The notes below the pieces were generated by a model. It was not told the origin of the DNA and did not search any database. It saw nothing but the letters and a program-made list of their open reading frames with translations. Shown here piece after piece: positions 4,652-31,029 of a DNA stretch of 64,000 nt. This DNA comes from Carcharhinus longimanus (Eukaryota): NCBI GenBank assembly GCA_030264375.1, contig JASCQW010000175.1, forward strand, positions 4,058,333 through 4,122,332. The letters run 5' to 3'. A program made the translations under genes and the position numbers. The number at the start of each line of letters is the position of its first letter. Position 1 is the stretch's first letter.

Positions 4652-4864
<213 letters not shown>

Positions 4865-6150: not shown

Positions 6151-6407
6151 TGAACAGAAATGGCATTTGTCAAGATTCAATCAGCCAGCATTATAAGCAG
6201 TGAAGGAAATTAGACTATACACCAATCTCTTAACTGCATTAAAAAAGCCATGCTTCATATTAAAACAGATCGGTGCGACTAAATCTGATCACGTCATGCA
6301 TTAATTGCTGGCTTTAATGGTATCCACATATTTTCTGAACGAATTATAATATTACAGACAAGTTAGAAAATGCCCTGAAATTCAAGAACAGCTTTGGAAG
6401 TACTTAC

Positions 6408-6477
6408 CATGAGCACACAGGCCTGCTTTCCATCCATGAAACCTTTAGGGATCGAATTAGGAGTAAGGATTTCATAT
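6408..6477 (-). CDS. MYH9: MYH9 70-nt exon (exon 18 equivalent), [23 protein letters not shown]
   Basis: ttgcag acceptor, gtaagt donor. Confidence 0.97.
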
Positions 6478-6758
6478 CTGCAAGAGAATTACAACAGAAG
6501 TAAAAACAACTGAATCCCATTGATGCAGAGCTTACTTTTAAAGCCTAAAAGAGAAAAACTGACTAGGTACTGGCTATCTACATAAACCGTAAGTAGTAAC
6601 ATAACAGACTGAATGACTTGAGACCTTCTACAAAATACTGCTGCCACCATTCTGTTACTGGGTTAGCACATGCAATCAAAATAATCTCCATGCATTTGTC
6701 CACATTTTATGGTCTTGTTAGCCAGCGTTAATTAGAAATGAGTTTTCTTGCTCTATTA

Positions 6759-7088
6759 GGGGAGGCAATGGCCTAGTGGCATTATCACTAGACTATCAAA
6801 CCAGAAACTCAGCTAATGCTCTGGAAGCTTGGGTTCAAATCTTGTCATACAAGATGGTGGAATTTGAATTCAATAAAAAAAAATCTGGAATTAAGAATCT
6901 ACTGATGACCATGAAACCATTGTCAATTGTCAGAAAAACCTATCTGGTTCACTGATGTCCTTTCAGGAAAAAAAATCTGCTGTACTTACCTGGCCTGGCC
7001 TACATGCAACTCGAGTCACAGCAATTGAGTGACTCAACTGGCCTCCAAGGGTAACTAGGGATAGGCAATAAATGCTGATTAGCCAGCA
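6759..7088 (+). mobile_element. tRNA-derived SINE (shark family with gggataggcaataaatgctg tail)
   Basis: Box A tggcctagtgg, box B ggttcaaatc; homologous copies at 39430-39725, 45255-45623, 58420-58712. Confidence 0.75.
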
Positions 7089-7089
7089 G

Positions 7090-8500
7090 TTTTTCCTCAT
7101 CTTACCTTTGGTTTTTTGGCCATTCACTTTAAAATCACTGTCCTCTGGTTCTTGAGGCTTCTACCAATGGGAGATTCCTCCCCATTTACACTGTACAGAT
7201 CCCTCATGACTTTGAAAACTCCCTTTAACTCTTTTGCCAAGCTTCTCAAAGCAGAACAGTCTCAGCTTCTCCAATCTATCCACACAACTGCAGTCCATCA
7301 TGCCTAAAGTTATTCCCAATTTTTTTGTGCCCTTTCCAATGCTTTCACATCTTTCATAATGGATGATGCCCAGAATTGGATATGTTGTTTCAATTGAGAC
7401 CAATGCAATGTTGTATGAATGTTCACCATAATGAACTTGCTTTTGCACTCAATGTCTCAACTTATAAAACCATTATGCCATATGAACTTTCTCAGTCTGC
7501 CAGTCACCTAAGCCTCTGCTCCTGCACCCCCTTTATCATTGTATCCTTTGTTTTGCTATTTGGAAGAACAAGGACAGCTAAAATGCATCACTTCACACTT
7601 CTTTGCATTAAATTTAATTTGCGCTGTGCCTGTCCAGCACACCAGCCTATATACTCTATCACCACAGTTCACTATTTCCACATTTTGTGCCACCCACAAA
7701 TTTTTAGAGATTGTGCTCTGCACACCCAAGTCTAAGTGATAGATCTGGTGAAAAATTGTGGTCCTGATACCCAACACCTGGCAAACCCTTCCACATTGCT
7801 TCCTCCAGTCCAAACAAAATTTCGCGAATACTCCATTTCAGATCAGCCAACTTCGTATCAATGCTGCCATTATCCCTTTTATTCAATAAACTTTTAGCTT
7901 TTCTAACAAGCCTGTTATGTGAATATAATCTTTATAATATTAAAAATCATCCTTCACTTTGAAAAAATCTAAACTGAGTAAAGACTGGCTCTGGCTTTGT
8001 CCTTTAGGTTATCTGGACTTTAACAATATANNNNNNNNNNNNNNNNNNNNNNNNNNNNNNNNNNNNNNNNNNNNNNNNNNNNNNNNNNNNNNNNNNNNNN
8101 NNNNNNNNNNNNNNNNNNNNNNNNNNNNNNCTCCCCATGATGGGGCCAGAATGAAGCATCTTCTTGCCAGCTGCACCCAACATACCTTCTAATTCTTTTA
8201 CTCTCATTCCATTCTAACTCAAACTCTAAGAGACTTTCTCTACACCTTATGACTGTAATACTGCATTCTGCACTCTCATTTCTTTCTTAATGAACGATGT
8301 GCTTTGTGTAGCATGCAAGAAACAATACTTTTCACTGACAATAATAAATCAAATCAAAGTCAGCTTTATTACCACACTCAATCCTCCATTACCTCATCAA
8401 AAAACCTAATCCAAATAAGTACAATTTTCCTTTAACAAATCAGTGGCTTTCCTTAATTAATCCACACGTTTATGCTTTTCCTGCCCAAAGAACTGGCCAG
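7090..8500 (-). mobile_element. Degenerate CR1 LINE RT and 3' region with a nested insertion
   Basis: Minus-strand ORFs read DRLEKLRLFCFEK and QIKFNAKKCEVMHF. Confidence 0.7.
8130..8360 (+). mobile_element. Rex1/Babar-like LINE 3' tail
   Basis: attctgcactctcatttc...gcaagaaacaatacttttcactgacaataataaatcaaatcaaa; homologous to 61955-62150. Confidence 0.55.
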
Positions 8501-8785
8501 GCATTGGGAAAAAAAAAAATCAGTAACTTGATAGTTCTTTACCAGTCAATCCTGAGTAGCTTTTCCACATGATTTAGTGGCCAGTTAGAGCAGTACAAGA
8601 TCGGAAGGTTACCAGCCCTCTCACCCAAGACCAGAAAGAAAAGAACAAAGTATTTTCTTCTTGACAAACTGTTTCACTTCATGAACTGAGAGACGCAAAC
8701 CCATCTCAAGGAACCTAACCCAGATATAGGCACATTGTGCAACAAATCAACAAATAACCAAGACCAAAAAGGTGAAGGAAGATTA

Positions 8786-8908
<123 letters not shown>

Positions 8909-9089
8909 CTATTAAATCAGGGAAGGACAGACATTATACATTTATACCAACAATTTATACTGAATTTGTGGCATCATGGTGATGGGCACATATCTCAGAT
9001 CAGGCTAAAGTATCTAGCCTAAAATACACAAATCCAACTTTCGTAGGTTGTTTCCTCAGTTCCATTTATAAAAAGGTTTTATTTAAAAC

Positions 9090-9500
9090 TATGTAGAACA
9101 TAGAACATAACAGCGCAGAACAGGCCCTTCGGCCCACGATGTTGCGCCGACCAGTTTTTTTTTTAAAAAAAACACTGACCCACTAANNNNNNNNNNNNNN
9201 NNNNNNNNNNNNNNNNNNNNNNNNNNNNNNNNNNNNNNNNNNNNNNNNNNNNNNNNNNNNNNNNNNNNNNNNNNNNNNNNNNNNNNAAGGATAACCAAAA
9301 ACACATTTTCATAGAATCCCTACACTGCAAAAGGAGGCCATTTGGCCCATCAAGTCTGCACCGGCCACATTCCCACCAACGTCCTATCCTCCTAACCCCA
9401 TGTATTTACCCTGATATTCCCCCTGACACCATGGGGCAATTTATTATGGCTAATCAACCTAACCCACACATTTGGACTGTGGATAGGAAAACTCACACAT
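9090..9500 (-). mobile_element. CR1-type 3' end plus 5'-truncated HE1-like SINE around a gap
   Basis: tagaacatagaacataacagcgcagaacaggcccttcggccc; catagaatccctacactgcaaaaggaggccatttggccc...ttggactgtgg. Confidence 0.6.
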
Positions 9501-9789
9501 TGTTGGCAATGATTTTGATTTACCAGTTAAAAGGGGCATTTTTTCCCCCCACTATTTTGTTCCTAGATTATCCCAAGCAGTAGAAGTTGGGGAATTGGGT
9601 AGAGTCATCAATCCATCTTTTTTACCCATCAATAAAAGTTTACAATTGCTCCCCTCAATATCCAACAGCCTCTTGAGATTACAGCTCCACTATTCCACCC
9701 AATTATTCTAGTTATTAATGTGACACTTCCTAACATCAATCCTGAATTTGACTTTATCATGGCTCACTGTCCTGAGGTTAGGGTTTAAC

Positions 9790-10270
9790 AAAGAACAACC
9801 CAGCACGGGAAACAGGCCCTTCGGCCCAACGAGCCCACGCTGCCATCTTAAAGCATTTTCCTACACCTATCTAGACCCGTGTGTCTAGATGGTACCCCCA
9901 TTGGAAACCAGATTCAGGGGAGAATAGTTCACGGACAATTTGTTACACCAATCAGCCTAAGAGCACATCTTTGGGGTGTGGGNNNNNNNNNNNNNNNNNN
10001 NNNNNNNNNNNNNNNNNNNNNNNNNNNNNNNNNNNNNNNNNNNNNNNNNNNNNNNNNNNNNNNNNNNNNNNNNNNNNNNNNNATTATTCCTTCCAAAATG
10101 CATCACCTCGCATTTGTCAGGATTAAATTCCATCTGCCATCTATCTGCCCAGTATACCAGCCTATCTATATCCTGCTGTGTCACCTGACAATCCTCCTCA
10201 CTATCCACCAATCCTGCCATCTTGGTGTCATCTGCAAACTTGCTGATCACACCACGTATGCCCTCTTCCA
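9790..10270 (-). mobile_element. CR1 RT fragment and SINE-like tail
   Basis: ORF 9957..10271: GVISKFADDTKMAGLVDSEEDCQVTQQDIDRLVYWADRWQMEFNPDKCEVMHFGR (FADD catalytic motif). Confidence 0.85.
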
Positions 10271-10404
10271 AATTAAACTACAGTCCAGGATCAACATTTT
10301 CTACATTTCTTGGAACCTATGTACCTCTATAAAGGTTTCCTGTCTTTTCACACATACAAGTTTTTATGATGTTTAAGGCATAGATCAGTTTCACTATATT
10401 TCTC

Positions 10405-12300
10405 TCAGAATCACAGAAATTTATACTATGGAAAGAGGCCATTTGGCTCATCAAATCTTTAACAGTCAACAAGTAGTGATCTTGCCTAATCCCACTCTCC
10501 AGTTCTTGGTCCACAAGCATGTCAGTTATGGCACCTTCAAGTGCATAACGAAGTACTTTTTAAATATCCTGAGGGTTTCTGCTCCCATTGCTTTCAGGCA
10601 GCAAGTTCCATACCCCCATTACCCTCTGGATGAAAAAAAACCTTTCCTTGAATCTTCTCCAAACCTACCTCAAAATTAAAATTTATGCCCTCTGGCAGTG
10701 GACCAATTAAAGGGTATCAGGATTTGTTTCAATTAGGTCTCCCATCAATCTCCTCAGTTACAAAGAAAACAACCCAAGCTAAACCAACCTTCCTTGTGTC
10801 TAAAATTCTCCAGTTCAGACAACCTCCTTGTAAATCTTCTCTATACCCTCTTCAGTACAATCATAATTTTATTATAATGTGGTAACAGGAACTGTATATT
10901 GTACTCCAGCTGTAGACAAACCAGTATTTTAAACAGTTCCAATATAACCCTCCCAGCTCTTGTATTCTATGTCTTAGCTAATAAGCACAAGTATCCCGTA
11001 TGCCTTGTTGAACACCTTATCTATCTGTTCGGCCACTTTCAGGAATCTGTGAATTATACACTCAAATATCTTGTTCCACTACATTTCTAATTATCCTAAC
11101 ATTTATGTACTTCCATACCTTGTTAGCATTTTAAATCTTCTCCAGATTGAACTCCAGCTGCCTTTGTTCTGCCTACCTGACTATATGATCAATATCTTTG
11201 TGCAGTCTACAGCTTTCTTCCTCACCTTTATTTACATAATTAAATTCTATTTAAGGTAGTTCTCAAGGTGAAAATCTAATTTACTAAGTTGGTGAGATTT
11301 TGTTTAAAGCTGTTGGGAGATGGCCCCTTAATAGGTTAAATCAGGCCAAGTTTTGTATTACCTGCAAATTTCTTAATCACGTCCCCTACATTGAAGTTCA
11401 CTACGTAAAGCAAGGAATCTAGTCCTGAACCTGCAGAATCCCACTGAAAACTATTTTCTACTCACAAAAACTACCCTTTGACCATACTCATTGCTTCCTG
11501 CCTCAGAACCAATTTTGGATCCAACTTGCCACTTTGCCTTGGATCCAATGAGCTTTTATTTCCATGACTAGTCTATCATGTGGCATATTACCAAATCCAC
11601 ACTGACCAAAAAAAAAAACACTACCCTTATCGACCCTCCTTGTTATTGCTCTTTCAAGGCTCTCAACATTCAGGACGTTCTACATTTGTTGGCCCCATCC
11701 TTTAAGGGAACTTACTTGCTTTGAACCCACCACTTTCTTGAATGCCTTCTGTTGACCTGACACTAGTTTAACATTCAAGAAGCTGTCTCCTGGCCATTTT
11801 AAATAAAATCACCTTCAACTTAGTAAATACGTTTTTCACTGAGAACTACCCTTAATCTAACTGAATGATGATCACTTGCACCATAATGCTTCCCCAACTG
11901 ATACTCCTTCAACCTGCCCAGCTTCATTCCCAAAAACAAGTCGAGAACCACTCCCTCTCATTGAGCGCAGAGACTAAAAAAATTCTTCCTGAATAGATTT
12001 TAAGGATTCTGCTCCCTCTGTGCCACAGTAATTCTATTCCAGTTAATATTATAGCTGAATTTCCTTCTTTATTACTGCCATATTGTTTTTGCACTTCTCA
12101 GAAAATCAGATCTTTATTCTATGCCCCTTTGACTGCTCGGGAACCAAAGTACACAAACAGTAGTGATATTCCCCTCTTGTTTCTCCAGTTGAATCCACAT
12201 GGCCTCATTTGATGATTCTTCTGCCACATCATCCCTCTTCATAGCTGTAATTGTTTCTTTAATCAACATTGCGAATCTCCTCCTTGTCTTATCTTAAAAT
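10405..12300 (-). mobile_element. Degenerate CR1 LINE
   Basis: 3' tail gaatcacagaaatttatactatggaaagaggccatttggc followed by decayed RT and endonuclease-like sequence. Confidence 0.7.
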
Positions 12301-12321
12301 TGCTTCGGATCATGCACTCAC

Positions 12322-12515
12322 CTTCTTCTCATGATTAGGAATAATGCAGCGCACAAAGTTAGGATTGGTGTTCCTGAGCGTTGCCATCAATTTCGAGAGC
12401 TGCTCCTTGTAAAGTTGACTAACTGTGCGGAACATGCCCCTTTTGGTTTTGAATGCACCAGGCAATGCTGTGTGGGACATCTCTACAACTTGATCCAGTC
12501 CAACGATGCGGTCCA
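12322..12515 (-). CDS. MYH9: MYH9 194-nt exon (exon 16 equivalent), [65 protein letters not shown]
   Basis: ttctcag acceptor, gtgagt donor; contained in ORF 12310..12585. Confidence 0.97.
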
Positions 12516-14934
12516 CTGAGAAAGCAATTGATGCAAGCTGATTAACTGTGCTAGGGATGTAGAAAACTGTGAAGAGGAGTGCCAATTATGGTGAAAAGTA
12601 GGGTCATGGTGAGAAGTGACAGCAAGCGGTAATAAACACTGAAAAGCTGGAGCAATTTTGATTAACCCACACAGGTGCCACTTCAAAATCTTCAAATTTC
12701 TCTTCAATAGTTGAGTGAATATTGAAACAAGCTCAAAAATTAAATGGTGCAATATTCAGTAGAAATTAAAAATATAATAGAAGTGAAAAAAGTGTACACT
12801 GATTAATGCCTTCTAAATCTACTTAATTTTAAAAAAATACCACATAAATACTGAGAAACAGACAACATTCAAGGGTGTTGAATGCCTTTAACTAAAAGGA
12901 TGAATTTTATATGGGCAAATACAGCAATGCACACCAGCAAAAACAAACAAGTCCACAACAGATAGAATTATTGGAAATGCACCAAAAGACTTGATGACCA
13001 TCAAAAATTGAAAAATTTTACCCAAACTAAAAATTAAAATAAATGATTTCTACCAGTAACAGGCTGTTTTATTGTAATTTGCCAACTGGTAACTGCATAA
13101 CTTCCAAAGTTACTAAATTTGAGAGTTCAAAGATAAAGCAGGGTGTTCGAAAGTGTGATGGAATTAGAGACTTGAGGAACTCAGCAAATGCATTACAATA
13201 TCAATAGGCATTATTAATGTAAGGTTAGTGAATCATATTGTTATTTAATTTAGAACAATCATAGGATAGAAACAAAAATCAACATGGTCAAGTCCCAAAT
13301 GAGACTAAGTTAAAGTTGTGTGGAACATCAATAGATAGATGGAATAAAATGCCAACTACCACCTTTCCAGCAAGTGTTGGATAAAGATCTAAAAATAAAA
13401 ACAAGTGTGAACATACTTGAGGATTGACTGGCTGTGGGTTAGCAAACTCAGTCTAGCCCAGAATGGAATCAACCCTTTAGCTGGTTCTACACAAAATGAG
13501 TTGGCACAATCTTAACTTTCAGCACATGCTTTGCAAAGGGCAAAAGTGCCTTTAATTTTCTTTTTGTAATCAGATAATGAAAATAACTTGTGTGGGTGTG
13601 GAAATTGGACATCGATATGGTGTGCGCTTTTGTTCTGCAGTTAGATCAGGGTAGAAACTTAATTCAACATACAGATTTTGGGGTTTTTGATGTAGACAGT
13701 AGTGTCCAAAATGGCAGCAAGCCATTCCCCAATATCCCTCACACATCAATAACCACACAAATAAGATCCAAATTGAGCAAAAAATATTCCCTTTGCATAT
13801 CCACATATTGGCCAAGACTGTGGAACTGCAGAAGTTCTTTCTGCTTTGTTACCATGACCTGCAAAAGCTCCTCGTGGGATCCAATACATATCCTACATTA
13901 TGCTGCCTTTAAATATTTTTCTTCTTTGCGAGTTTGGCTGGGAACGTGGGAAAGTCTAGGTCACAGATGCATCACGTTAAGTAACAAAGCACCGACAGCC
14001 AGAGATGACGTAATCATAGCTGGGCAAGATGACAAAGGGAGATTTTCTTTCCAATAGGAGTCAGCAGCAACGGCTCCAAATGGTGACCAGAGCAAAACAC
14101 CACGTGCCTAAGCTAAAAAAAGAATTTTCTGCAACAGATAGCCTAAAGGCATTTCTACTGGCTATAGCACTACAGTATCCACACCAGTAAAAACAGATAT
14201 GGATTTTAACTGAAATGCAGGAAATCAATTTTTAACACCTATGTAGGATAAACAAATTACACTACAATTTTAAACTTCAGCTGTAATTTCTACACAATAC
14301 ATCCAGTGCAACTTTAGACTGAACATCCTCAGGACATGCAACTTAATTAACTAAATACTCAGCAATGAGCAAGGCTATAAATGCAAACCAAGATTAATGA
14401 GGCTAAGGAACATTACTTTTCCCAATTATTGCCACTATTGGTGATAGCGACAATGAAGGACTTTGGAGCAGCAAGTCACAATGTTAAGATGGTTTTAATC
14501 TAAAGGGGGCTATGCAGTTACTTTCATGTTTTCTTCAGTCATAGAAATTACAGTACTAAAACCAACACCCACCCCATCTTCAATTTCCTTGAAACATCTA
14601 TCCCAATTTCAAAACATTCCACTTTTACAATCTTTACCCAAGTGTTCAACTGCAGCCATCAAAAAAAATTCTTGTATCTTTTTACAATATCTTTTCAAAT
14701 TAGATTGTTCCTAGCTTTGTGGGGAAGTGTTCCTTGTGTGTCAAAACATTTTGTTCAACTTCCCCTCTTCTTTATACTACCAACTCAATCTATGCCTTCA
14801 GTAAACAAGTTACTTGTGGAAATAATGTTATACTACTTAGCCCCCAAAACCTTTTATTTTTAAAAGTTTGTTTCTAGAGAGAGAAGCAGAAGAATTAGTT
14901 TTTAGCAATAACTTTCTATTCATGGTCTAATTCT

Positions 14935-15510
14935 TTTGTATTACCCAGGAAGGTCAGGGTGAAAGGAGGCCATTCAGCCATAGTGCCTCTGAAAGAGCAG
15001 TTCGCTTCTGTCATATCCACACTTTTTGTCTGCAACCCTACCAAGATGCTCATTCTCAAGTACCTGTCCAACTCCCTTTTACACATAGGATTAGCTTCCA
15101 CCACTTTTTCTAGTCTTCCAGATCCCGACAATGCTGAATTTAAAATCGCCAGAGTTTGAACCTATGATTTCTGCTTACTATACCACAGGAAAATGTTTTT
15201 ATCTATTTGATCCAAGGACAACTTTTCCAACATCTCCCCATAACTAAAGACCTTCATTGTTGATGACATCCTAGTAAGTTCACTTTGTCTTTATGTGTGG
15301 TGCCCAGAATTGTCTACAATACACCAGCTGAGGTCTAATAAGTGATTTAAGAAGTTCTAGTATGATGTATTTGTTTTTATATTCATCTATTTATAACCCC
15401 AAGTAACCCACTTGCTTCTTTTTTTGAAACCTTATCAACTTGCTCTAAATCTTTAAAAAAGCTGTGTATATGGGCACAGACTTCTGACTGTTTATCTGCA
15501 GCACTTCTCA
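14935..15510 (-). mobile_element. CR1 3' fragment
   Basis: gaaaggaggccattcagcc tail; KVVEAN...KRELDRYL on the minus strand. Confidence 0.65.
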
Positions 15511-16244
15511 AAATATAATTTTCTATTGTGGCAATCATAGTTATGCATTAATCAAGATGACAGATGAATACACTTATAATCGTTCTTGTTTAAGAAAACG
15601 GTGGCCTGAAGTTCCAAAACAATGGTCAAAGTTGAAGAGATCAAATCTGGTAAATAATAAACTCCTGACAAACCAACTCAATGTGAAGTTCTATTACCCT
15701 TCCTCTTATAAGCTTTAATTAATAACTGCAATCTTCTGACAGATCAGCCAATGAGCTACATCCCAGATTAATGACAATGTGCTAACTTCTCAAACCCTCG
15801 AGGTGTTTTTGTATTATATTCTGTTGCATGGGCATACAGTATGAAGAAATAATGATGTATACTGTGCCATGGATATTCATCCAAAATTGCTTAATTTGAT
15901 ATGTCCAGCATTCCAAGAAAGACACAGGGGTTTATCTTTGGGAGTTACATTGATGTGTTAAGGAAAATCTTTTCAAACCAATGTCTTTAAGGAAATCTGG
16001 GGTGGAGTGGGATTCCTAACTAGGACCATAAAAATTACAGCTGAAGTCTTTTGCAATCAGGTTAAACTAACTAAGTTCGGCTGTTGTAATGCAGACAAAT
16101 GCTGAAGTAACACAAATGCAAGTGTGGAAAACTGAAAAGGTTATATAGAAAAGGAACTAATTTTATATATTTGTTTAAAAGTACCAAAAAAAATCAATAT
16201 TTACACACTTCAAGGAATCCTAAATTGCTCCACGACATTACAAA

Positions 16245-17350
16245 AATCATAGATCGATTACAGCAGAGGAAGCCATTCAGCCCACCTCATCTCTGCAGTC
16301 CTCTGAAGAAACCACCTAGTGCCATTCCTGTCTTCTCCACAAACCTGCAAACTTTTCCTTTTCCAATAATGATCAATTGAATATTGGATGCCTCAATTGC
16401 ATCTTCTGCCCCCACACATAGGCAGTGAATTCCATATCCTAACCACTCACTCATGTTGCCATTGCTTCTTAATTACCAATTACTTTAAATCAGTGGCCTC
16501 TGGCTCTCAAACATTCCATCAACTGGAGCAGAAACTCTGTCCAGGAACATGATTGTGACTACTGCCATCAAATTTCCTCTAAATCATCTCTTTTCCAAAG
16601 GACCAAAATGCTAACTTCTCCTATCTTACCAATTAACTGAAGTTCCTCATCCTTGAAATTATTTGTGAATCTTTTCAAACCAATTTTGTATCCATATCAC
16701 TACAGTGCCCTTTATCGCATGAGCTCTAACTTTGCTCATTTTATCAAGTCTATGTATGCTTAAAACCCTCACTGTTTTCTCATCAAAAAACTCAAACAAG
16801 TTGGTTAAACACAATTTGCCCTAACAAATTGTTCTAGCTTTCCTTAATTAACTTGTATTTGCCCAAGTGGCTATGAATTTTGTTCTAAATTATTGTTTTT
16901 AAAAGCTTCCTCATCACATTGGTTAAACCAACTGGTCTGAATTACTCAGCTTATCTTTACACCATTTCTTTGAATTTTTTTTCACAATTCCCCAGTCCTC
17001 TGGCACCATCCAAGTCCAAAGAAGATTGGAAAATTATGACAAGTGCCCCGGCAATTACCTCACTTCCCTCAGAATTTTTGGATCTCATCTAGTCCTGGTA
17101 TCTAATTTTAAATACAGCTAGCCACAGCAATACCTCATTTATCAATTTTAAACCATTCAACTATCTGAATTATCATATCTTCTCTTTCACCATGACCAGC
17201 ACTGCTGGTCCTTCCTTGGTAAAAGGCACTTGCAATGTAACATAATACCTCAGCTATGACCTCTGCCTCGATACACAAATCTCCTGTTTGATCCCAAATT
17301 GGCCTCACTCCTCCCATACCACCCCTTTTAATTATTTGTTTTTTCAATTC
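16245..17350 (-). mobile_element. Degenerate CR1 LINE
   Basis: aggaagccattcagccc tail; VRPIWDQTGDLCIEAEVIAEVL on the minus strand. Confidence 0.7.
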
Positions 17351-18782
17351 CCCTTTGAACCTTTAATAGATTTGTTCTGATAAAAACAGAAGGCAAGTTT
17401 AGAGGAAGCTATTTTCCCTCTTCCCCTCTCTCAGTCATCACCTATTATCCATAAAACAATGGAGGCTAGCTTGGTAGTCTCCAGCTTCCTCTTCTGCTAA
17501 CATCAATTCCACTGCATTTACTTGCCAAGTTCACAGCTTTAAACTAACTGGCAAACATATAAATATATATATTGTCCACCTGAAAGGGCACTGTAGAATA
17601 GATTCCTAAGCTTTTTTTTTGGTCGCTCTTGCACTTTTGTCAATGTAGTTAATCCAATGCAATACTTAAAATTCAAACATTTATAGCATAATAGTATTCA
17701 CAGTGCTGGAACTATACAGTGGGTAGATACAGAAAGTGAACCTTTTAGAGTATTTGTGACAGGCCTGTAAACCTTAAAATGAGAATGAATCCAAGTTAGT
17801 ATATTGGTGCCGATATACCACTGCAGGCTTCAGTATTAATTGTGAGAATCAACATGACATGCTCTTGGAGACTCATTTCATGCAATATTCTTACTGCAAA
17901 TAAGGAAACACACCTGTACCTTTCAAAAAACCTTCTACATTCTTAAATGACAAATCAGAACCTCAATTTCATAAAACATAACCTGTGGAATACAGTAGAG
18001 GCGGTTGACAAGAAGTGAACTTGAAGTGCACATATAATTTCACAGAGAAAAGTGGTTAGTTCAAGTGTCTGAATAGGTTAAGTTGCAAAGATTGCAAAAG
18101 CCCAGGCTGCCTGATATTCCACACAGGGAAGCATGGAATAAGGGGGAAGGAATAGTAGGAATGTTACTCTGGGCTGTTTACATGTCGTGCCAGCCCATTC
18201 AAGCCTGGCACTATAAATACCTGACTTGATGCCAGTTTTCCTCCTTTCTCAGTAAAAGGATAGTATGTGAGGAGATAAGGTGGAGCTCAGAAGACGGAAT
18301 TGTGGAAATGGATTTTTTTAAAAACATAGAATGCCTAATTGAGAATTAGTTTGCAATGACCCACCCTTATCTTAAAGAAACTAGAAGGACACAAGGCCCT
18401 TGGGATAAAACTTGTACATCTAAATTTAGGTCCAACAAAAACTAAATGGTTATATTTATGAAATTACAGTCTCATCATTGAATGCAGAAGAAAATTCCTC
18501 ATACAGGAAAGAGGCAAATAAAAATAAGTCAATATTATAGATAAAGCTAATTTCAACTTTTCCACACAAGTGCATTTTGCTTACGAGTTGGTGGAACATG
18601 TTTCACCACTGCAGCTCAGGATGAGGCACTGTTGAAATGGTTGGGCCGCATTAACCTGAAGCGAAGGGAAAACAGAAAAGAACACTGCACAAGCAGGAAT
18701 GGAGAGGAAAGATGAGCATTCAAAGCAGGCGATTCTCAGAAGCATCGATCTACAGCACTATCACAGACTCCTCTCACGTCAC

Positions 18783-18845
18783 CTGGTTCTAGATGTAGAA
18801 TAGGAAAGCGTGTATAGAAATAGGCTCTCTGAAAGCTTTTTATCT
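18783..18845 (-). CDS. MYH9: Putative 63-nt alternative loop-2 exon, EIKSFQRAYFYTRFPILHLEP
   Basis: tctgtgtctgttgcag|AGATA...GAACCAG|gtgacg; phase 1-1, no stop, 21 aa; aligns with the MYH10 B2 insert EIQNIQRASFYDSVSGLHEPP (shared EI..QRA.FY.....LH..P). Confidence 0.85.
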
Positions 18846-19319
18846 CTGCAACAGACACAGAGACATCAAGACAAAAATAAGAAAAATGAATCCTTAAAAA
18901 AAATCCCATTAACAATGAGAACTACAGGATACACAAGATTTGGTCTCTTTAGATAGTTATTCAATTGTTGAATGAATCATTTAGCAATTGCAGCATAATC
19001 TCCACCTTCAGGAGTTGGTGCTGTGCACAGACCAGGAATTCCTCTAAGGATGGGACATATCAAAAACTTTTATCACTTAAATGTCAAATTATTGAACAGT
19101 AATAGCACTAACAGAGCAATGCGAGCAGATCACACCTGCCTATCTTTTGCTACTGGGGATTTGGAAATGGGAACGTGGAGCTAAAGATAGAACATCCTAT
19201 GGTAGAAAGTAGTAACAGTGAAATTAAACAGATTGAATCCTACAAAGAAATGCAATAACGTGATTTTAACACTTGCTTGAATTCAAATGCAAGGAAAATC
19301 TCTGTGCTCTCTGCTAGCC

Positions 19320-20635
19320 TGACATCAGTCATTGTGAAAGTCAGTTTATATTAAGGAAGCATTAAGAATTTGCTTAGAAAATCAATGCGATCAGACAAAG
19401 TCAGTTGGCTTTAAATAAATGAAAATTACGTTTGACAAATCTGTTTTTTTTTGAGGATTTAACCAGTGATCCAAAAGTCATCCAACAAGTTGCCACATTA
19501 AAGATTAATACACAAAGGCTCATGGATAGAGGATTGGTTTACAGACAGGAAATAAAGTGTAGGGATAAACAGTACATTTTGGTAGGCTGTAACTAGTGGA
19601 GTGCCACAAGAATGAGTGCTGGGGCCTCAACTATTTACAATCTATATTAATGACTTAGACAAAACAGAGAGCAATGCATCTAAGTTTACTGGCGACACAG
19701 TGGGAATGCAAGCCATGAGAAGAACACACAAAGAGGCTGCAGAGNNNNNNNNNNNNNNNNNNNNNNNNNNNNNNNNNNNNNNNNNNNNNNNNNNNNNNNN
19801 NNNNNNNNNNNNNNNNNNNNNNNNNNNNNNNNNNNNNNNNNNNNCACAAAGAGGCTGCAGAGAGATATAGGCAAGTTAAATGAGTGGGAAACAAGATGGT
19901 ACATGGAGTATAATATGGGGAAATGTGAGGTTATTCATTTTAGTAGCAAGAATATGAAAGCTTTTTTTAAAAAGATGCAAAAAAACTTGTAAGTGCTGAA
20001 ATTCAGAGTGTGTGATTGTACAAGAAACGCAAAATGTAAGCATGCAGGTATAGCAAGCAATTAGGAAGACAAATGGCACACTGGCCTTTAGTGCAAGGGG
20101 ACTAGAGTACAGTTTAAGGAAGACCCCTACAATTGTACAGGACTGTGGTTGAGAACACACCAAGAATACTGTGCGCAGTTTTGATCTCCACCTTTAAATG
20201 AAGGATAGCAAAGGTTCACTAGATTGGTCCACGGATTCAGAATGTTAGCCTACAAAGATAGATTGAGTAAATGGGTTTGTATTCTCCATTGAAACATCTC
20301 GTTAAAGCATACTAAATTATGAAGGAGCTTGATATGCTAGACACAAGTTGTTCCCCCTGGCTAGGGAATCTAGAAAACGAAAGTACAGTCTCAGGATAGT
20401 GGGCCAATCATTTAGGACTGACATGAGGAAAAGTTTCATTACTCAAAAATGGCATGAATCTTTGGAATTCCCTACCCTAGAGGGCTTTTGAAGTTCTATC
20501 ACAGAATATATCTAAGGCAGAAATACACAGATATGGAGTGGGTAGGAAAGTGGGAGTTGAAGCCAAAGATCAGACATAATATTGAATGGCAAAGCAGGCT
20601 CAAATTGTCTACTCTTGCCCCTATTTCTTACGTGC
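19320..20635 (+). mobile_element. CR1 LINE RT and 3' end
   Basis: VTSGVPQ.VLGPQLFTIYINDLD...SKFTGDT, EYCAQF; tail ctactcttgcccctatttcttacgtgctt. Confidence 0.8.
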
Positions 20636-21212
20636 TTACTGAAAGTCTCCAAATCAAAGAAATCACATCAAATCATAAATCGATATATTCCACATAGCAG
20701 GAAAATGATCCTTCCTACATTCTACCAAACCTCTATTTTTCCATGTTGTTTGTCGGAAATACTTGATCAGCAATTGGGATTTTGGGGTGAAAACACTCCA
20801 CTATTCAATTCACCAACGCTGCTTAGAATGGAGTTGCTGAAAATAATTTTTAATTTTTTTCTAAACAAGTAAAATTCATCTGAAGCAAAGCAAATTGGAT
20901 TGTCCCTTTTCCAAGGGAAGATGGGGTCTCTTGGCTACCACATTGCCACTAGATTTATTAAGCTATCCTTGCAAATATGTGTCTGTGCTGGACTCTTGCA
21001 ATCATAGCATTATAATCAGGTACATGCTGCAAACATTTTCAGAATTCAGAGTTTAGCAAGCGACTGGAACACTGAACTTATTTTATGATTTCCCTAAATC
21101 TAGACAGCATAAGCAGCAGATTATGGTATTACCAAAAAAAACTGTTCATGTCAAAAGCTACAATAAGCAATAGAAGCATTTTAAGCAGCTGAAGTTTCTA
21201 ATTTTAACATAC

Positions 21213-21327
21213 CATCCCTCCAGAGATCAGCTATAAACTTATCAGATGATTGGTGCAGTAAAGTGGCGATGTTGTCATTCAGGGGATCCATGTTCTTCAT
21301 CAGCCATTCATTCGCTTTGTAGTCCAC
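21213..21327 (-). CDS. MYH9: MYH9 115-nt exon (exon 15 equivalent), [38 protein letters not shown]
   Basis: atag acceptor, gtatgt donor, ends phase 1 at the loop-2 insertion point. Confidence 0.97.
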
Positions 21328-21578
21328 CTATATTGCAAACCAGAGATACCTTATAATAAATACCTTGATCAACAATCAATTATTTAATCTGTTGAGTCCT
21401 GGTTACAAAGTCTGATATACATATTTCACTTTCATGTTCTTTGTAGAGTGCACATGTTCAGGCAAGGAGAACAAAACAGGTCAACAAGGTGGCAGTTGAA
21501 TGACTAGATTATTTCACACATTTATGGCTATTCTTTCAATAAATTATGTAAATGATAACTGCATCAAGCTTTAGATCA

Positions 21579-21776
<198 letters not shown>

Positions 21777-21840
21777 TTAAAAATTAATCTCAATATACTT
21801 CTGGGGAGCTAGTTAGCCAAAACTGAGAAACATTACTCAC

Positions 21841-22014
21841 AGATTTTTCAATTAGGTCAATGCAAGGCTGCAAGTCAAGACCAAAATCAATGAAGTTCCA
21901 TTCAATTCCTTCTCGCTGGTACTCTTCTTGCTCCAGAATGAACATTGTGTGATTAAAGAGCTGTTGAAGCTTTTCATTTGTGTAGTTAATGCACAACTGT
22001 TCAAAGGAATTCAG
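21841..22014 (-). CDS. MYH9: MYH9 174-nt exon (exon 13 equivalent), [58 protein letters not shown] (relay helix)
   Basis: ttgcag acceptor, gtgagt donor; contained in ORF 21790..22101. Confidence 0.97.
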
Positions 22015-22414
22015 CTGCAAAAGGACAAAAAATAAAAAGTCACCAGGAAGGAGGAAGATAGCATCACATGACAACCTAAATTCCTCAGCCAGATGAAACA
22101 AATAGTCTTAGTATTTATCCTGTCAAGCCCTTTCGTAATGTTCCAATGAAATCACTTCTCATTCTTCTAAACTCCAGAAAATATAGACCTGATTTACTCA
22201 ACCGCTTAGCAAACCTTCATTCTACTGCCTTCAGTGTAATCAGATCCTTCTTTAAGACCACCAAAATTACGCACATTCCAAGTGTGCTCTCACTGAAGAC
22301 CTGTACAATTGCAGCAAGACTTCTTTATTCTTGTACTCCAATCCCTTTGCAATAAAGGCCAACACGCCAATTCTGTTCCCAGTTGCTTGCTGTGCCTGCA
22401 TGCTAATTTCTTAT

Positions 22415-22735
22415 ACAACAAAATCAAAAAGCTGGAAAATCCCAGCCAGTCTATCAGCATCTATATGGAGAGAAAACAGATGTTTCAAGTCCACATGACC
22501 CTTATTCAGAACTGAAGGGAAAATATGATGTATACAAGGGGATGGGAACAGTGGTTAGTGGGGGATGGAAGAGATGGCAATAAAGATGTGGTAAAACTAT
22601 GGCCCAGTGGGGGAGGTAAGGTTTATGCATCAGAATAAGAAAATATTTGCGTCAAAAAAAGGTAAATTTGAGGAGAAAGGTCACAATCTAAAGTTGTTGA
22701 ACTCAATATTCAGTTCAGAGGGCTATAACGTATCT
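22415..22735 (-). mobile_element. Penelope-like 3' end
   Basis: Reverse complement reads ...PSELNIEFNNFR; terminal repeat ttctgaataagggtcatgtggacttgaaacatctgttttctctcc with a mutated hammerhead core. Confidence 0.65.
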
Positions 22736-22738
22736 AGT

Positions 22739-22990
22739 GGGTGACACGGTGGTCAGCACTGCTGCCTCAGCACCAGGGACTCTGGATCAATTCCAACCTT
22801 GGATAACTGTGTGGAGTTTGCATGTTCTCCCCTGTCTGCTTGGGCTTGCTCTGGTTTCCTCCCACAGTCCAAAGGTGGTTAGGTGGGTTTGCCATGCTAA
22901 GCTGCCCCTTCGTGTCCCAAGATGTGTAGGCTAGATGGATTGGCCACAGTAAATGGAGTTACAACGGGGTTACGGGAGTTTCCCTACGCT
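22739..22990 (+). mobile_element. HE1-like V-SINE
   Basis: acacggtggtcagcactgctgcctcag...gtgtggagtttgcatgttctcccc...ggtttcctcccacagtccaaag (V-domain). Confidence 0.85.
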
Positions 22991-23653
22991 GTTTCATGTC
23001 CATTAACTAATCTTCCATCCATGCTAATACATTATCCCCAACTCCATAAGCCCTTTGCGTGAATTAACTTTTTGCATGGCACCTTACTGAATGCCATTTG
23101 GTGATCCAAGTATACTTCACCTACTGGTTCTCCTTATCTATCCTACTTGTTACATCATCAAAAAACTAAAATTTGACTAACTGGGATTTCTTTTTTGTCG
23201 AACCACGTTGACTGTCTGCTCATACTATGCTGTTCTAAGTCAAGTTTTCCATACATTCCAGCACTTCCTGAATTGCTCACTTAGGGTTAACTGGCCAGTA
23301 AGTTCTTCATTTCACACTCTCTCTCTCTCCCCTTTGAATAGCAATGTTACAATTGCTAACTTACATTCTGCTGGAACCATTCCAGATTCTTGGTAATTCT
23401 GGAAAATCACAGCCAGGACATCCACTACCTCTTTTCGAAAACTAGGATGTAGACTATTGGGCCCTAGGGATTTGTCAGATTAGTCCTTGAATTTCTTCAG
23501 TATTTTTCTCCACTGATGCCTTTAATTTTCTCATTCTTATTTGCCCCTAGGTTACCCTCTATTTCTGGTATGTAACTTGCAACTCCTACTGTGAAGGCAA
23601 ATAAAATATTTGTTCAATGTCTGCCTTTGCCTCAACCTTATGATAAGTTATCC

Positions 23654-23992
23654 CTAAAGTTTAAGATTATTAGTGTCACAAGTAGGCTTACATTTCATTA
23701 ACACTGCAAAGAAGTTACTGTGAAAATCCCTTAGTTGCCACACTCTGGTGCCTGGAGGAGAATTTAGCACAGTCAAAATACCTAACCCACACATCCTTGG
23801 ACTGTGGGAGGAAAGCAGAGCACCCGGAGGAGAATGTGCAAACTCTGCACAAAGTGACCCAAGCCGGGAATTGAATCCAGGTCGGTGCCAACTGCGAGGC
23901 AGTGGTGCCAACTGCGAGGCAGTGGTGCCAACTGCGAGGCAGTGGTGCCAACTGCGAGGCAGTGGTGCCAACTGCTGTATCATCGTGCCTCC
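23654..23992 (-). mobile_element. HE1-like V-SINE with internal minisatellite
   Basis: ttggactgtgggaggaaagcagagcacccggagg...gtgcaaactc V-domain; tail shared with 28890-29175. Confidence 0.85.
23884..23975. repeat. Perfect 20-bp tandem repeat, about 4.6 copies (ggtgccaactgcgaggcagt)
   Basis: Read directly from the sequence. Confidence 0.97.
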
Positions 23993-24980
23993 CACATCCT
24001 GTCTCCTTCTAAAGGCAGATTTACTAAGCTATTAATTTCCTGTTGCAAAATGGTAAAAATGTTGTGATCTGTTTTTATATTTCTGGCTAGTTTACAATTA
24101 TATTTATTTCCTTTCTTTCAACTACTGAGGTGATCCTTTGCTGTTTCTAAAATACTACCAATCCTCAATTACTATTGATCTTTGTAACATTATAGTCTCT
24201 GTGGTCAGTCTAGAGTTAATGTTTATTTACAGCACATCACTACTTGTATGCTAACTAGATTCCATTTGTTTGAATGTGGGTTAGAAACAAGTCCACATGG
24301 ATTAGATGTCAATTTGCCAATTTCAATGTCACTCAGACTAACAGTGATGCTTAGTGTGGGGGAAAAAGGGAAAAAAATCTGTCACACTGGTATAGAATTG
24401 AGACTTAGATAATACGAGACCTGGGTGTGGTTGATCAGCATTCTTGGTGTACTTTTACTGTGAAAAAAATTAATCACTTGGGCAAGCAGGGAAAGAAAAC
24501 TCACATCATTACACACTTATTCACAATTTCAGCACTTTCCAAATGTAAAGAGTTTTGAAGTTTGAACATGAAATTCAATCACACAAATTCAAGTACTGCA
24601 GGTCTAAATGCACCAAAAAAAGTGTGTTGCTCATTGACAAATGGTGCATCATATTGAGTTTAACAGACTATAGAGTGGAACACAGTTCTGAAATCAATCC
24701 ATGGTACAAGCAAAGCTCAGGTATTTAGCATCCTAATGTCAAGTCCTTGAAGCACATCCCAACCAGTCTAAAGCTACTTTAGATTCAGTATTCCCCCACT
24801 TTCAATTTAGACTGAACAGAAAATGGCTTTTGTTACTCTGTACAGGGAACAGAACACTGCAAATATCCCAAAAATATCAGTGGAGATGTAATTCCAGGAT
24901 TGCCACAAAAGGCTTACTGCTCTTGGTCTTCGTGCCAGAAATCTACTCTCAACTTGAAACGTCCCCAATCAAACAACCCA

Positions 24981-25251
<271 letters not shown>

Positions 25252-25983
25252 CTAAATGTAGAAAAAATAAATCCAAGTCAGCTAAAAATCAAAATGTACA
25301 AACATTAGTCATCACAGGATATTTATTAGGAAAACTATGTATTATATGGAAAATCATTTTAAGCAGTAGATCTCACATGAAGCCAGAGCAGTGAATTGTG
25401 CAATCGTGATTTTCCAAAATAGGACGTACTCTGAATAAGGAATATGCCGGATTACGAGGTTTGCAAATATCTATCAAAGCATTATAGATGTGTTAATAGT
25501 ACAAAATTCAATATGTTACTAATATATGTCTATTTGGATCAACGTCAAACTGCTGACTTCAACCAGGTTTTTCTTCTCATTAGATCTATTCCAAAACGAT
25601 GTTAAAATATTCCTCACTCCTGGGAGATTCGCTGAGAATCTGGCACAGGGAAACCACTTGGAACAATGGCAATGGTTATTTCACAATATAGATGTTCATG
25701 CTGGTTCTATGCCAACAATTTCCAAGATCTGTGGAGAATCTGAGTGACCTTAACAATTGGTTATTTAGTCAACAGTCCACGATATTCTTGGCACATCCTC
25801 TGATTAAGTACAGCAAAGCAGATTCACTGGCCACACAATTATTCCAAACAAATATCGGTACTAACTAAGCAGTAGTAAAAGGCAGCAAGAGGTAATCTTT
25901 GTCAGTCATTGTGAATTAATTTGGTTGAGAAAACAGAACCCCAGGAGCAGGTTTCTACTCGGTCAGTGCTACTCTATTGGTAG

Positions 25984-26275
25984 CCATGATGTGGCGACAC
26001 CGGCATTGGACTGGGATGGGCAATGTAAGAAGTCTCACAGCACCAGAGTAAAGTCCAACAGGTTTATTTGGAGTCACGAGCTTTTGACCACTGCTGGATC
26101 AGGTGAGTGGAGGGTTAGGTTCACAAACTGTAAAGACCGGCATTATCTTGCAACTGTGTCTCTGTCTATAGATGCCGTGTTTGTGTAGCTATCTCTCCAC
26201 TCACCTAGAGAAGTAGTGCTCCAAAAGGTTGCGATTCCAAATAAACCTGTTAGTGTTGAGACACTTCTTACTGTG
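25984..26275. mobile_element. Penelope-like insertion made of two inverted terminal-repeat arms, with 12-bp target-site duplication
   Basis: Left arm gtaagaagtctcac...aacaggtttatttgga...caggtgagtggag is the reverse complement of right arm ctccactcacct...tccaaataaacctgtt...cttcttac; flanks ctctattggtag at 25972-25983 and 26276-26287. Confidence 0.8.
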
Positions 26276-26479
26276 CTCTATTGGTAGGAGCTAAATGTAC
26301 CTTGGGCTTCACAACATGTACAATTTCAAAACACAACATACTTTTTCAAAAAAGAGAAATCCCTTCTTAGCCCCTCATTGGGGGCGAATGCTTCTGTGCC
26401 TCTGTGATGGCTTTCTTCACACTGGCAACACACATTAAAACCTAAGCCCACATAACTATCCAATGCAGTTGAAGCTTTC

Positions 26480-26591
26480 AGCTATCATGGCGACCTTGGA
26501 TCCAGAAGCACCACAATATGAAAATTTGCAATTACTTTCAAATGTCTGTAGCAACTGTAATTATTTTTAAGAACGTTTGACAAGGGTTGCA
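26480..26591. repeat. 112-bp direct repeat, copy 2
   Basis: Matches 24981-25092, offset 1499 bp. Confidence 0.95.
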
Positions 26592-27802
26592 TCAATCATG
26601 AAAGGGCGAATTGTGTTTGTTAAAAAATAGAAATACTGATCTGTGTGCCTCAGTGGTTCTTGACATGGAAGCAGTATTAAAAGGAAGACAATTATGACAG
26701 AAACTGTGTGGTTGACGGACACTAGGGAGAGTTGGAGACCAAAGGTAATCAGCACACAAATGCTGACACAAAAATGCTCCAGCAGGACACAGGTATCAAC
26801 CTCATGGTGTGTTTAGCAGCAGCCAAGTTCTGTACAAAGAGGCAAGTTTTCTAGATAGGGAACTTGCCACCAGGATTGATGTAACCTGCAGAAGTGAGAA
26901 TTTGTAGACGTCAGTATTAACTATATCCAGGGTCTCAGGTAGACTCCATCTACCAGTGAATGCAATTTAAAGGCAGAACTGATTTAAGTGGGAAAATGAG
27001 AGCTCGTGCATACCAGGCACACGAAGCCACACTTGTGTTGGGAGTAATACGGCTANNNNNNNNNNNNNNNNNNNNNNNNNNNNNNNNNNNNNNNNNNNNN
27101 NNNNNNNNNNNNNNCATTTAGTTTGTATTGATTCCTATTCATATTAAAAGTTACACAGTGTAACAATGTTAGCAATTTCTTCTCTTTGGGCGTCATTCAG
27201 CAAATTAGGTTATCTTGGTTTATGTCTCCCCCATGGGTTCAAAAGTATGAAAGCTCTTGCTTTGTAACAGAAATCTGTTTATTAAATGTATCAACGGGAC
27301 TGAGGTGATCAGTATAAATTGCCTTTGAGCACAAATAGAAACCCCGTTTATCTGAATTTTTTTTCAATGAACATACGAACAGAGATAGCTGGAACACTGG
27401 ATTGAGTGGGAAGCGAGTTGAGTACAAACAAATCAAACTAAAGAAAAGGTTTGTGGCTTGATTTTGGCTTCAACCACCAGTTTGGATCCTATCAATTCCA
27501 TTCCCTTATAAAACTTTGCACACCCAATTTTAAATATTGTGCATGAATTCTACCAGTTAAGATTCCAGAAACGAAGTAGTACTGTTCCAAATAAATGCAA
27601 ATTACGTTTAAGTACTGTTATTCCAACTGTTTTACTTTGATACACAGTCTGAAAGAAATATTGATTCAGTTTGGCTCAAGTGCATTAATTACTGGCTGTT
27701 AATGGTTTTAACAAATTTTAAAATTCCAAAATTTTAAAGGACTTATCAACTTCAGAGTTAGCTTTTACAATTATTTTTTAAGGAAACTAAGCCAATACTC
27801 AC

Positions 27803-27921
27803 TTGTTCTTTGGTCTGAGCTTTCTGAACATAGTCCCTCCCAACTTTAATACGAGGAGTGAGGATCGCCCTGCTGAAGTCAGTTACATTGATTCCCAGCA
27901 GATGGCAGACTTTTTGGGCAG
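27803..27921 (-). CDS. MYH9: MYH9 119-nt exon (exon 11 equivalent), [40 protein letters not shown]
   Basis: cacag acceptor, gtgagt donor; contained in ORF 27758..27940. Confidence 0.97.
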
Positions 27922-28059
27922 CTGTGAAGCAAAAACACATTGAAGACTGCCATTAAGAATCTAATGTTTTGCTACCGAACAACAAAATATTAGCTGCACC
28001 TTCAACAAGCAGAAATACAATATAGTATAGCAATATTTGTGTACATGGATCAAATTATA

Positions 28060-28860
28060 GCAACATATGGAGTTAACAGCACAGAAACTGGTGATTTGGT
28101 CCAATACCTATGTTTCACATGAGTCTTTTTCCACACCTCTTCATTTCAGCCCATCAGCATATCCTTCTATTCCCAAAACTTTCACCAACATGATCAAGCT
28201 TGCCCTCAATTGCATCTACAGCTTCAACAGTTACTCCATGTGGAGTAGGTATTATGTTTTAACCACACTCTCGAGCAAGAGTATTTTTCAGAATTATTAC
28301 TAAATTTATTAGTGACTAGATTTATGACAAATAATTCTGGACTTCCCCTAACAAATGGGAGCATATCTACATCTACTCAGTCAAATATCCCATCAGGTCA
28401 TCTTTTATCCATCTCTTTTCTAGGGCGGGTGGGTGCTTATAAAGCTTCAGTTCTGGCATCTTTGGAAATCTTTAGGTAATACAATTTATTTTTATTAATA
28501 TAGTACTTTGCTCTGGTCTGGTCTCCAAGTGTGATCTAACAAAGGTCTGTACATATTTAACAACTTCTATGCTTTTAATTTGTAGATGAATAAAATTAAG
28601 TCCAATGCTTTGTTTGCACATTTATTGGTTTTGTTAGCCTGGGTTGCTGGTTTTCATGCTTTGTGAAACTGGAACCCTTGATCCCTTTCTTCTTCTACCC
28701 CATTTAGACACGAGTGGTGGCTTCCTCAGCCCTCATACCAAACTAGACCACTTTGCACTTACCAATATCAAAACAAAATTTACATCCCCATTCTGCAAGT
28801 TTGTTAGTATCTTTTCGTATTTTGTTGCGCTCTTCCTCCATATCAATCAATTAATGTGTA
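28060..28860 (-). mobile_element. Old CR1 3' fragment
   Basis: acagcacagaaactgg tail, ccatgtggagtaggtattatgttttaaccacactc, decayed RT 3' region. Confidence 0.55.
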
Positions 28861-28889
28861 ATATTCTACTTATGATTCACGATTCTAAA

Positions 28890-29175
28890 TTATTTAAGTT
28901 CATTTATTTGTCACATATAAGGCTTACAGTAACACTGCAATGAAATTACTGGTGATATTCCCTTAGTCGCCACACTCCAACATGTGTGTGTTCAGCACCA
29001 TGCACCTAACTAGCATGTCTTTCAAATTGTGGCAGGATACCAGAGCACCCGGAGGAACCCATGCAGACATGGGAAGAATGTGCAAAGTCTACACAGACAG
29101 CGACCCAAGCCAGGATTTGAACCTGGGTTCCTGGCTCTGTGAAGCAGCAGTGCTAATCACTGTGCCACCATGGGG
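28890..29175 (-). mobile_element. HE1-like V-SINE
   Basis: cagagcacccggaggaacccatgcagacatgggaagaatgtgcaaagtctacacagacag...gcagcagtgctaatcactgtgccacc. Confidence 0.85.
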
Positions 29176-29559
29176 CGAATGGATCTGATCCGCAATGGTT
29201 GACTTGCCATCACTTGTACTTTTAGCAACATGGCACCATAATAAAGTTGAAATAACTTCCAAAAAAATAAATACCAATTGTGCAAAATTTTACACACCAT
29301 TTTCTTTTTGACCCAACCAGTATGGGTCCTAACCTAGTGTAGTGTTTTCTCTTAGCAGACAAGATGAACAGGCTATTGATATTTGTTTTGTGTTTGCTCA
29401 TTCACCTTTTGTTTCCCCGCCCTCTGTTTTTGTATTTCCAGCTGAATTATTTGGTGCCAGCGACATGCTGTATCATCATACTCTTCGTGTTTGATCTGCC
29501 AGCCTACACATCACCCACCAACTTCCCAGCAGTCCTCTCCCTCTTCCTGCTCTATGGGT

Positions 29560-29826
29560 AAGTCAAGTGACACAGACATAACTACTGAAGCTTTATATGA
29601 CCCTTGTCAGACCCCACTTGGAGTACTGTGCGCAGTTCTGGTCACCTCAATTCAGGAAGGACATGGAAGCCATTGAAAGGGTACAGAGGAGATTTACAAG
29701 GATGTTGCCTGGATTGGGAGGCATGCCTTATGAGGAGAGGTTGAAGGAGCTCTGTCTTTTCTCCCTGGAGAGACGAAGGATGAGAGGTGACCTGATAGAG
29801 GTTTATTAGATGTTGAGAGGTATAGA
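29560..29826 (+). mobile_element. Relatively young CR1 ORF2 C-terminal fragment
   Basis: [68 protein letters not shown]. Confidence 0.9.
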
Positions 29827-29926
29827 NNNNNNNNNNNNNNNNNNNNNNNNNNNNNNNNNNNNNNNNNNNNNNNNNNNNNNNNNNNNNNNNNNNNNNNNNN
29901 NNNNNNNNNNNNNNNNNNNNNNNNNN

Positions 29927-30200
29927 GCACAAGGACCCCCAGGTCCCTCTGCACCGTAGCATGCTGCAGCTTTTCGCCTTTTAAATAATAATCCCTCCTA
30001 CTACTATTTCTGCCAAAGTGGATAACCTCACACTTGCTAACATTATACTCCATCTGCCACGTCCTCACCCACTCGCTCAGCCTATCCAGATCTCTCTGCA
30101 GACCTTCCACACCCTCCACGCGATATGCTTTTCCACTCATCTTCGTCAGCAACTTTCGTCACCCTACACTCAGCACCCCCCTCCAGATCATCTATATACC
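29927..30200 (-). mobile_element. Relatively young CR1 RT fragment
   Basis: LQRDLDRLSEWVRTWQMEYNVSKCEVIHFGRNSSRRDYYLKGEKLQHATVQRDLGVLV. Confidence 0.9.
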
Positions 30201-31029
30201 AGATGTTACATTTGTCTTTTGCTCAAGGACACCTCAAATAGAGTAACAGCGTATTTATTAAGTATTCGCTATTCAAAAGCAGCAGTTGCAATTTTAATTG
30301 TTCGTGTGACCTACTTCATGAATACTCTTCTAGAGATATGAAATCTTCTATTTTTCTTTCCCCTTCCATCCTTACCTTCCTTTGTGGCTCAGTTTGGCCA
30401 GTCTTCCCAACTGCAGGTTTGGAGAGATGTATATAAAATGACTTGCATAATGATACTGGACAAATTTCACCACTTTGTGTTCAAACACATTCTGCCTACC
30501 TCATGTAATAGGGCATGACTGTAACTTGTAAATCCTCATCTATTATTTTAGTCTGTGAATGCTCTGCCAGTCTCTCAACAAAGAAAGAAGTAATTTAAAG
30601 CTAGTAATTAAGATACCCAATTGGAGTGTGGAGCAACCACCCAATTTATGTTTGTCAACGTTAAGACATAATTGCAATTTAAAGACAGATGGAATCAAAC
30701 ATTGTAAATTGCCTGCTGAAATAGTCAATTGCGCCACTAGAATTTAAAATTAAGTCACATTTATATAAGATCCTTAACATATTACATCAAGACATTTCAT
30801 AGGAGTCATAGATAAAATGCAACTTTGAGCCATACAGGGAGGTGTTTATTTTGACAGGAGCACCTTCAGATTTATGCAGTATCCTAACAGGGAACAACTT
30901 GTGAGCAGCTTGCACGATACCTTCAAGATTATTATGCAGGTGTGCAAGCGTACAGCTTAGCAGGGGACATTACTTACCACCTTTCGAAAACATGAGATCA
31001 TCCAAAACGCCTATGTCCTAACTCATAGC

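Follow-up and report, generated by a model that had tools for sequence, protein, structure and literature searches.

Within the motor domain of a cartilaginous-fish MYH9 gene, on the minus strand of the 64,000-nt stretch of DNA analysed here (the window), lies a 63-nt cassette that sequence comparison confirms as a real exon and the orthologue of the known mammalian MYH9 A2 exon. It is probably handled as in mammals, being skipped by default owing to a weak donor and retained in only some brain transcripts, where it would yield a low-ATPase, actin-tethering myosin IIA. The frame, the splice sites, the host gene, the homology to A2 and B2 and the conserved weak donor on which this reading is built come from sequence; the tissue, the RbFox dependence and the motor behaviour are carried over from papers on mouse and human.

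Das et al. 2023 (PMC10480317) and, in the available text, Mallick et al. 2026 (PMC13158602) have described A2 (the exon of NM IIA2) in mouse and human, where the isoform occurs in brain at low abundance. The exon was known before and already appears in the public catshark annotation; the value of the shark locus lies in the age of the exon, the conservation of its weak donor and the reciprocal distribution of inserts among the paralogues of shark and mammals. That length, phase, peptide and weak donor are all shared by shark argues that the exon has been selected for since jawed vertebrates arose and is not splicing noise. The literature searched contains the two JBC papers on mammalian A2 and nothing on an A2 or loop-1 insert in MYH9 of cartilaginous fishes. 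Mallick et al. align 10 species in a figure; the words ‘shark’ and ‘zebrafish’ are absent from the main text and two supplementary text files of that paper (PMC13158602).

The cassette exon and its host gene

The features of the loop-2 region, all on the minus strand, are as follows.
752..43771, minus: 16 constitutive motor-domain exons of MYH9 (approximately residues 171–833); the gene extends past the window
21213..21327, minus: upstream constitutive MYH9 exon, ending ...DLWRD plus one base, donor GTATGT
18846..18885, minus: pyrimidine tract and 3′ splice site, ending TTGCAG
18783..18845, minus: A2 cassette exon of 63 nt (phase 1/1), which adds 21 residues at the base of loop 2
18777..18782, minus: 5′ splice site GTGACG, with a non-consensus C at +5
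12322..12515, minus: downstream constitutive MYH9 exon carrying loop 2 (VDRIV...HEKK), starting TG GAC CGC after the acceptor AG

The host is the MYH9 gene of a cartilaginous fish. Its 16 exons in the window map at 89–91% identity to four shark and ray myosin-9-like proteins, and the downstream exon has human myosin-9 as its top PDB match and shark and ray myosin-9-like proteins as its best sequence matches (94–100%, one repeat-inflated teleost model aside). Identity over 247 shared columns is 97.2% with catshark MYH9 versus 87.9% with catshark MYH10, and in an unrooted tree built on 418 columns the gene falls among shark MYH9 genes (support of 0.99 for the group and 0.88 for MYH9 versus the other paralogues). 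EIF3D, which is linked to MYH9 in human, is located 8.4 Mb from the gene on its contig and lends weak support to this identity.

Three further paralogues are found elsewhere in the genome. The one on contig C137 is MYH10 (99% identical to catshark MYH10), at a locus distinct from that of the window gene; those on C128 and C27, labelled from motifs and their place in the tree with no reference sequences, are likely to be MYH11 and MYH14, respectively. The C27 gene (G000:C27:122.85 Mb) is a non-muscle-type myosin II that the tree joins to the MYH10 group as its sister; a 220-N assembly gap hides the exon upstream of its loop-2 intron and some of that intron. The MYH10 contig (G000:C137) also has three weak matches, at 33.6 Mb and 41.2–41.4 Mb, which are probably sarcomeric myosin genes; human MYH10 likewise shares its chromosome with genes of this type. 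High-copy repeats occupy the introns of the window gene at approximately 19476–20670, 16190–17380 and 9957–10277, with a contig depth in the thousands near 19.5–20.6 kb, and some ORFs within them resemble LINE reverse-transcriptase fragments.

Translated in the frame of the flanking exons, the cassette at 18845–18783 adds the peptide EIKSFQRAYFYTRFPILHLEP. It sits between an exon ending in WxD and the VDRI exon and starts at the second base of a Glu codon, and the preliminary description of a frame-preserving loop-2 cassette in cartilaginous-fish MYH9 is borne out in its length of 63 nt, phase 1/1, lack of stops, AG/GT ends and host gene. Such geometry alone is not rare and proves little, as the 8,697-nt loop-2 intron contains nine stop-free 63-nt stretches running from AG to GT. 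Only the one at 18845–18783, however, combines a CAG/GTGA donor with the best pyrimidine tract of the nine (13/20). A profile of 12 non-shark A2 inserts scores the exon at 87.8, with the runner-up among 8,635 intron windows at 15.8, and none of 5,000 shuffles attains the score of the exon, the region of which is single-copy in the shark genome. Read-through ORFs of relatives (17, of which 16 were obtained from a representative protein search and one from a word-based search) share the upstream flank SVAE in 15/17 cases and end in P/S-G-D in 17/17, the latter corresponding to a donor G/GTGAY with a non-G base at +5; acceptor and donor bases are thus conserved too.

The published A2 exon is 63 nt long, and its first base is position 2 of a GAG (Glu) codon (PMC10480317). 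The shark exon shares with it the gene, the junction, the length, the split Glu codon and the donor core GTGAC, and differs from it at residues 2, 3, 5, 12 and (versus mouse) 21, at donor position +6 (G in shark, T in mouse), in lying within an 8.7-kb intron and in its cartilaginous-fish host. Identity amounts to 16/21 residues with the mouse peptide (PMC10480317), to 17/21 residues and 53/63 bases with human A2, as counted by eye from two cloning primers (PMC10480317), and to 15–17/21 residues across the 12 non-shark inserts. The same codon is used at 14/16 of the fully contained residues shared by shark and human (by eye), versus 40–47% of the identical residues in constitutive exons of shark MYH9 and its paralogues (180/382, 124/277 and 108/267). 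This high codon identity points to constraint at the nucleotide level, a comparison that is suggestive only, the paralogue splits used for contrast being older.

A near-identical counterpart is found in the RefSeq isoforms X1 and X2 of the myosin-9-like protein of Scyliorhinus canicula (XP_038639471.1 and XP_038639472.1), automated gene models in which the insert occurs at the same junction and is identical at 20/21 residues, with I where the window has T. Among 185 proteins collected for the survey, 146 span the loop-2 junction and eight of these carry the 21-aa insert, namely the two catshark isoforms and six models from turtles, birds and a marsupial; the distinct insert sequences available for comparison number about a dozen. 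The preliminary view of MYH9 as mostly non-inserted does not hold, given the descriptions of A2 in mouse and human (PMC10480317, PMC13158602) and its presence in these RefSeq models.

Relation to B2 and C2 and the age of the cassette

The name first given to the exon, ‘B2-like’, captures a true homology, in that bony-fish MYH10 B2 inserts have the same length of 21 residues, occupy the same position and are identical to the shark exon at 8–10/21 residues. The host gene is MYH9, however, and the closest insert is A2 (16/21 with mouse), and A2 is the better name. B2 differs further in being acidic (net charge −2 to −3 in three inserts), in having fewer aromatic residues and in its donor, which the available text of PMC13158602 reports as strong, unlike that of A2. 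The MYH14 C2 insert, compared here by description and not by sequence, shares the position (PMC10480317) and differs in its length of 99 nt (33 aa) and its phosphorylation-independent activity (PMC10480317 and the available text of PMC13158602). As identities of the window exon, the MYH10 B2 exon was rejected because MYH10 is a different locus, and the MYH14 C2 exon because of its length and host gene.

A profile of nine bony-fish B2 inserts (from sturgeon, bichir, eel and other teleosts) ranks the A2 exon first among the 8,635 windows of the MYH9 intron (33.4 versus 12.0 for the next; 0/5,000 shuffles). That a B2 profile picks out the A2 exon supports a common origin of the two inserts, a relationship already noted for human by Das et al. 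(PMC10480317). By comparison of the shark and tetrapod sequences, A2 is likely to be at least as old as jawed vertebrates.

No B2-like exon is present in the gap-free 1,430-nt loop-2 intron of MYH10 in this genome (G000:C137), where the best B2-profile score is 11.0, and neither the A2 nor the B2 profile finds anything in the MYH11-like loop-2 intron, which contains 62 N. Among the matches listed, B2 occurs in 0/44 scorable cartilaginous-fish MYH10 models (of 46), 43 being without an insert and one having an unrelated 9-aa stretch, versus 17/98 other scorable proteins of the MYH10 set, in which the named carriers are all bony fishes. These gene models are not independent and the search was limited to 2,000 residues; the shark MYH10 clusters of 23 and 47 models are represented by 15 listed members each, the other 40 lying outside the counts. 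The pattern suggests that B2 was lost from shark MYH10.

The simplest account of these sequences, and a probable one, is that the A2/B2 cassette is older than the MYH9/MYH10 duplication and that B2 was then lost in sharks, a pre-duplication origin requiring such a loss (or a later transfer from paralogue to paralogue) in view of the missing MYH10 exon. Alternatively, the cassette could have arisen after the duplication in one paralogue and been copied to the other, for example from A2 to B2 by conversion. The low score of the shark MYH10 intron against that of the A2 exon, the 0/44 count against the 17/98 carriers elsewhere and the empty MYH11-like intron would all fit such a copy, but we consider it unlikely: A2 and B2 are identical at only 7–10/21 residues, as befits a very old split, mammalian MYH14 bears an insert at this site too (PMC10480317), a single loss in sharks accounts for the pattern, and the 0/44 count rests on the partial membership of the two large shark clusters.

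Predicted splicing and motor behaviour

The shark donor CAG/GTGACG and the mouse donor GTGACT have the non-consensus C at +5 in common. According to the available text of PMC13158602, mouse A2 is skipped owing to this weak donor (MaxEnt score of 6.60), and mutating it toward the consensus raises the score above 10 and increases inclusion; RbFox3 promotes inclusion without a canonical UGCAUG, and the motif proposed for its binding is GUGACU, from which shark differs at the last base. By a crude consensus count the shark donor scores 6/9, a measure on which it cannot be told apart from constitutive donors. The shark A2 exon has no canonical TGCATG in the 255 nt before it or the 300 nt after it, and the available text of PMC13158602 likewise reports none for mouse. 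Inclusion of A2 amounts to 15% in mouse brain (PMC10480317). In the human protein, NM IIA2 has a Vmax of 0.017 versus 0.38 per s, does not support gliding and slows mixed filaments, and HMM IIA2 shows a >10-fold drop in ATPase (PMC10480317).

By analogy, the weak 5′ splice site of the shark exon would cause default skipping in most tissues, and inclusion would be neuronal and confined to a minority of brain transcripts. The product would be a myosin IIA with 21 extra residues in loop 2, predicted to retain actin binding and filament co-assembly but to show little actin-activated ATPase, and it may act as a brake or cross-linker that damps mixed filaments.

Loop 2 is mostly disordered. The shark insert differs from tetrapod inserts at 4–6 positions, mostly within the first five residues, and its kinetics may therefore differ. 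An insert that is included but acts like MYH14 C2, independently of phosphorylation, or is kinetically neutral in sharks, with no switching off of the motor, would be in keeping with the net charge of +1 and five aromatic residues of the shark insert (0 to −1 and four in three tetrapod-type inserts), and with the variation of loop-2 insert effects between paralogues (PMC10480317). Such behaviour is improbable, however, as 16–17/21 residues match a mammalian A2 that was assayed as nearly inactive, and B2, the next closest insert, is also of low activity (PMC10480317).

Still less probable is that the exon is a relic in the shark lineage, kept in sequence through slow evolution or regulatory overlap without being meaningfully spliced in, as the absence of the insert from 49/51 cartilaginous-fish MYH9 models (including six full-length proteins from Logan assemblies that were checked) and the unusually high codon conservation with human might indicate; frame, length, both splice sites and 15–17/21 residues are kept relative to the 12 non-shark inserts, several of the residue changes are conservative, the catshark gene models include the insert, and nucleotide constraint is equally expected of regulated alternative exons. 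The occurrence of the insert in only two of the 51 models (1/21 named species) is as expected for an exon with low, tissue-restricted inclusion like that in mouse brain. No RNA data set is listed for 12300–21800. Among contigs of four sequencing runs compared with most of the intron, those of the single presumed RNA run leave the exon uncovered and show no exon–exon junction among the 15 joints listed, and the 40 rows listed for related DNA runs include no change inside the exon; these observations weigh neither for nor against inclusion.

The loop-1 microexon and reciprocal inserts

The same gene contains a second alternative insert, at loop 1.
43319..43339, minus: loop-1 microexon QSTVLAY, 21 nt, phase 0, flanked by CAG and GTGAGT

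This 7-aa insert accounts for most of the differences between isoform pairs of shark and ray MYH9 models. It is present in MYH9 models of 21/21 named cartilaginous fishes and in 28/51 cartilaginous-fish models overall, three of which are full-length proteins with Logan assemblies as their only source, and it is found in 0/90 tetrapod MYH9 models, of which 87 are without an insert, two have unrelated inserts and one is unscored. A TGCATG is located at 43380, approximately 40 nt upstream of the microexon.

QSTVLAY can be aligned with the SM-B insert (7 aa) of smooth-muscle myosin from birds and is also similar to the second of the MYH10 loop-1 cassettes in sharks and bony fishes. It has in common with the MYH11 SM-B insert its length of seven residues, the junction, the first Q and the last Y, and differs from it in being part of MYH9 and in most of the middle five residues. 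The SM-B insert speeds ADP release (available text of PMC13102872). Loop-1 splicing was not detected in mouse MYH9 by Das et al. (PMC10480317); the available text of PMC7566000 mentions, without detail, that MYH9 and MYH10 have variants at both loops.

Shark MYH10 apparently lacks B2 and shark MYH9 has the loop-1 microexon; together these give a comparative handle on how regulatory inserts are split among myosin II paralogues. Tentatively, and with the chances slightly against it, one may picture a pre-duplication vertebrate non-muscle/smooth myosin with both a loop-1 microexon and a 21-residue loop-2 cassette, which lineages then kept reciprocally, cartilaginous fishes retaining both in MYH9 and losing B2 from MYH10. 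If so, A2 would be the only B2-type motor-off brake of cartilaginous fishes, the MYH9 loop-1 insert would be an SM-B-like speed switch of a kind not detected in mouse MYH9, and the four isoforms of shark myosin IIA would serve as a natural experiment on the tuning of a single motor by its loops 1 and 2.

A myosin-9 model of Emys orbicularis (P0051) carries A2 together with a different, 6-aa insert at loop 1, perhaps the remnant of a cassette, perhaps an artefact of annotation.
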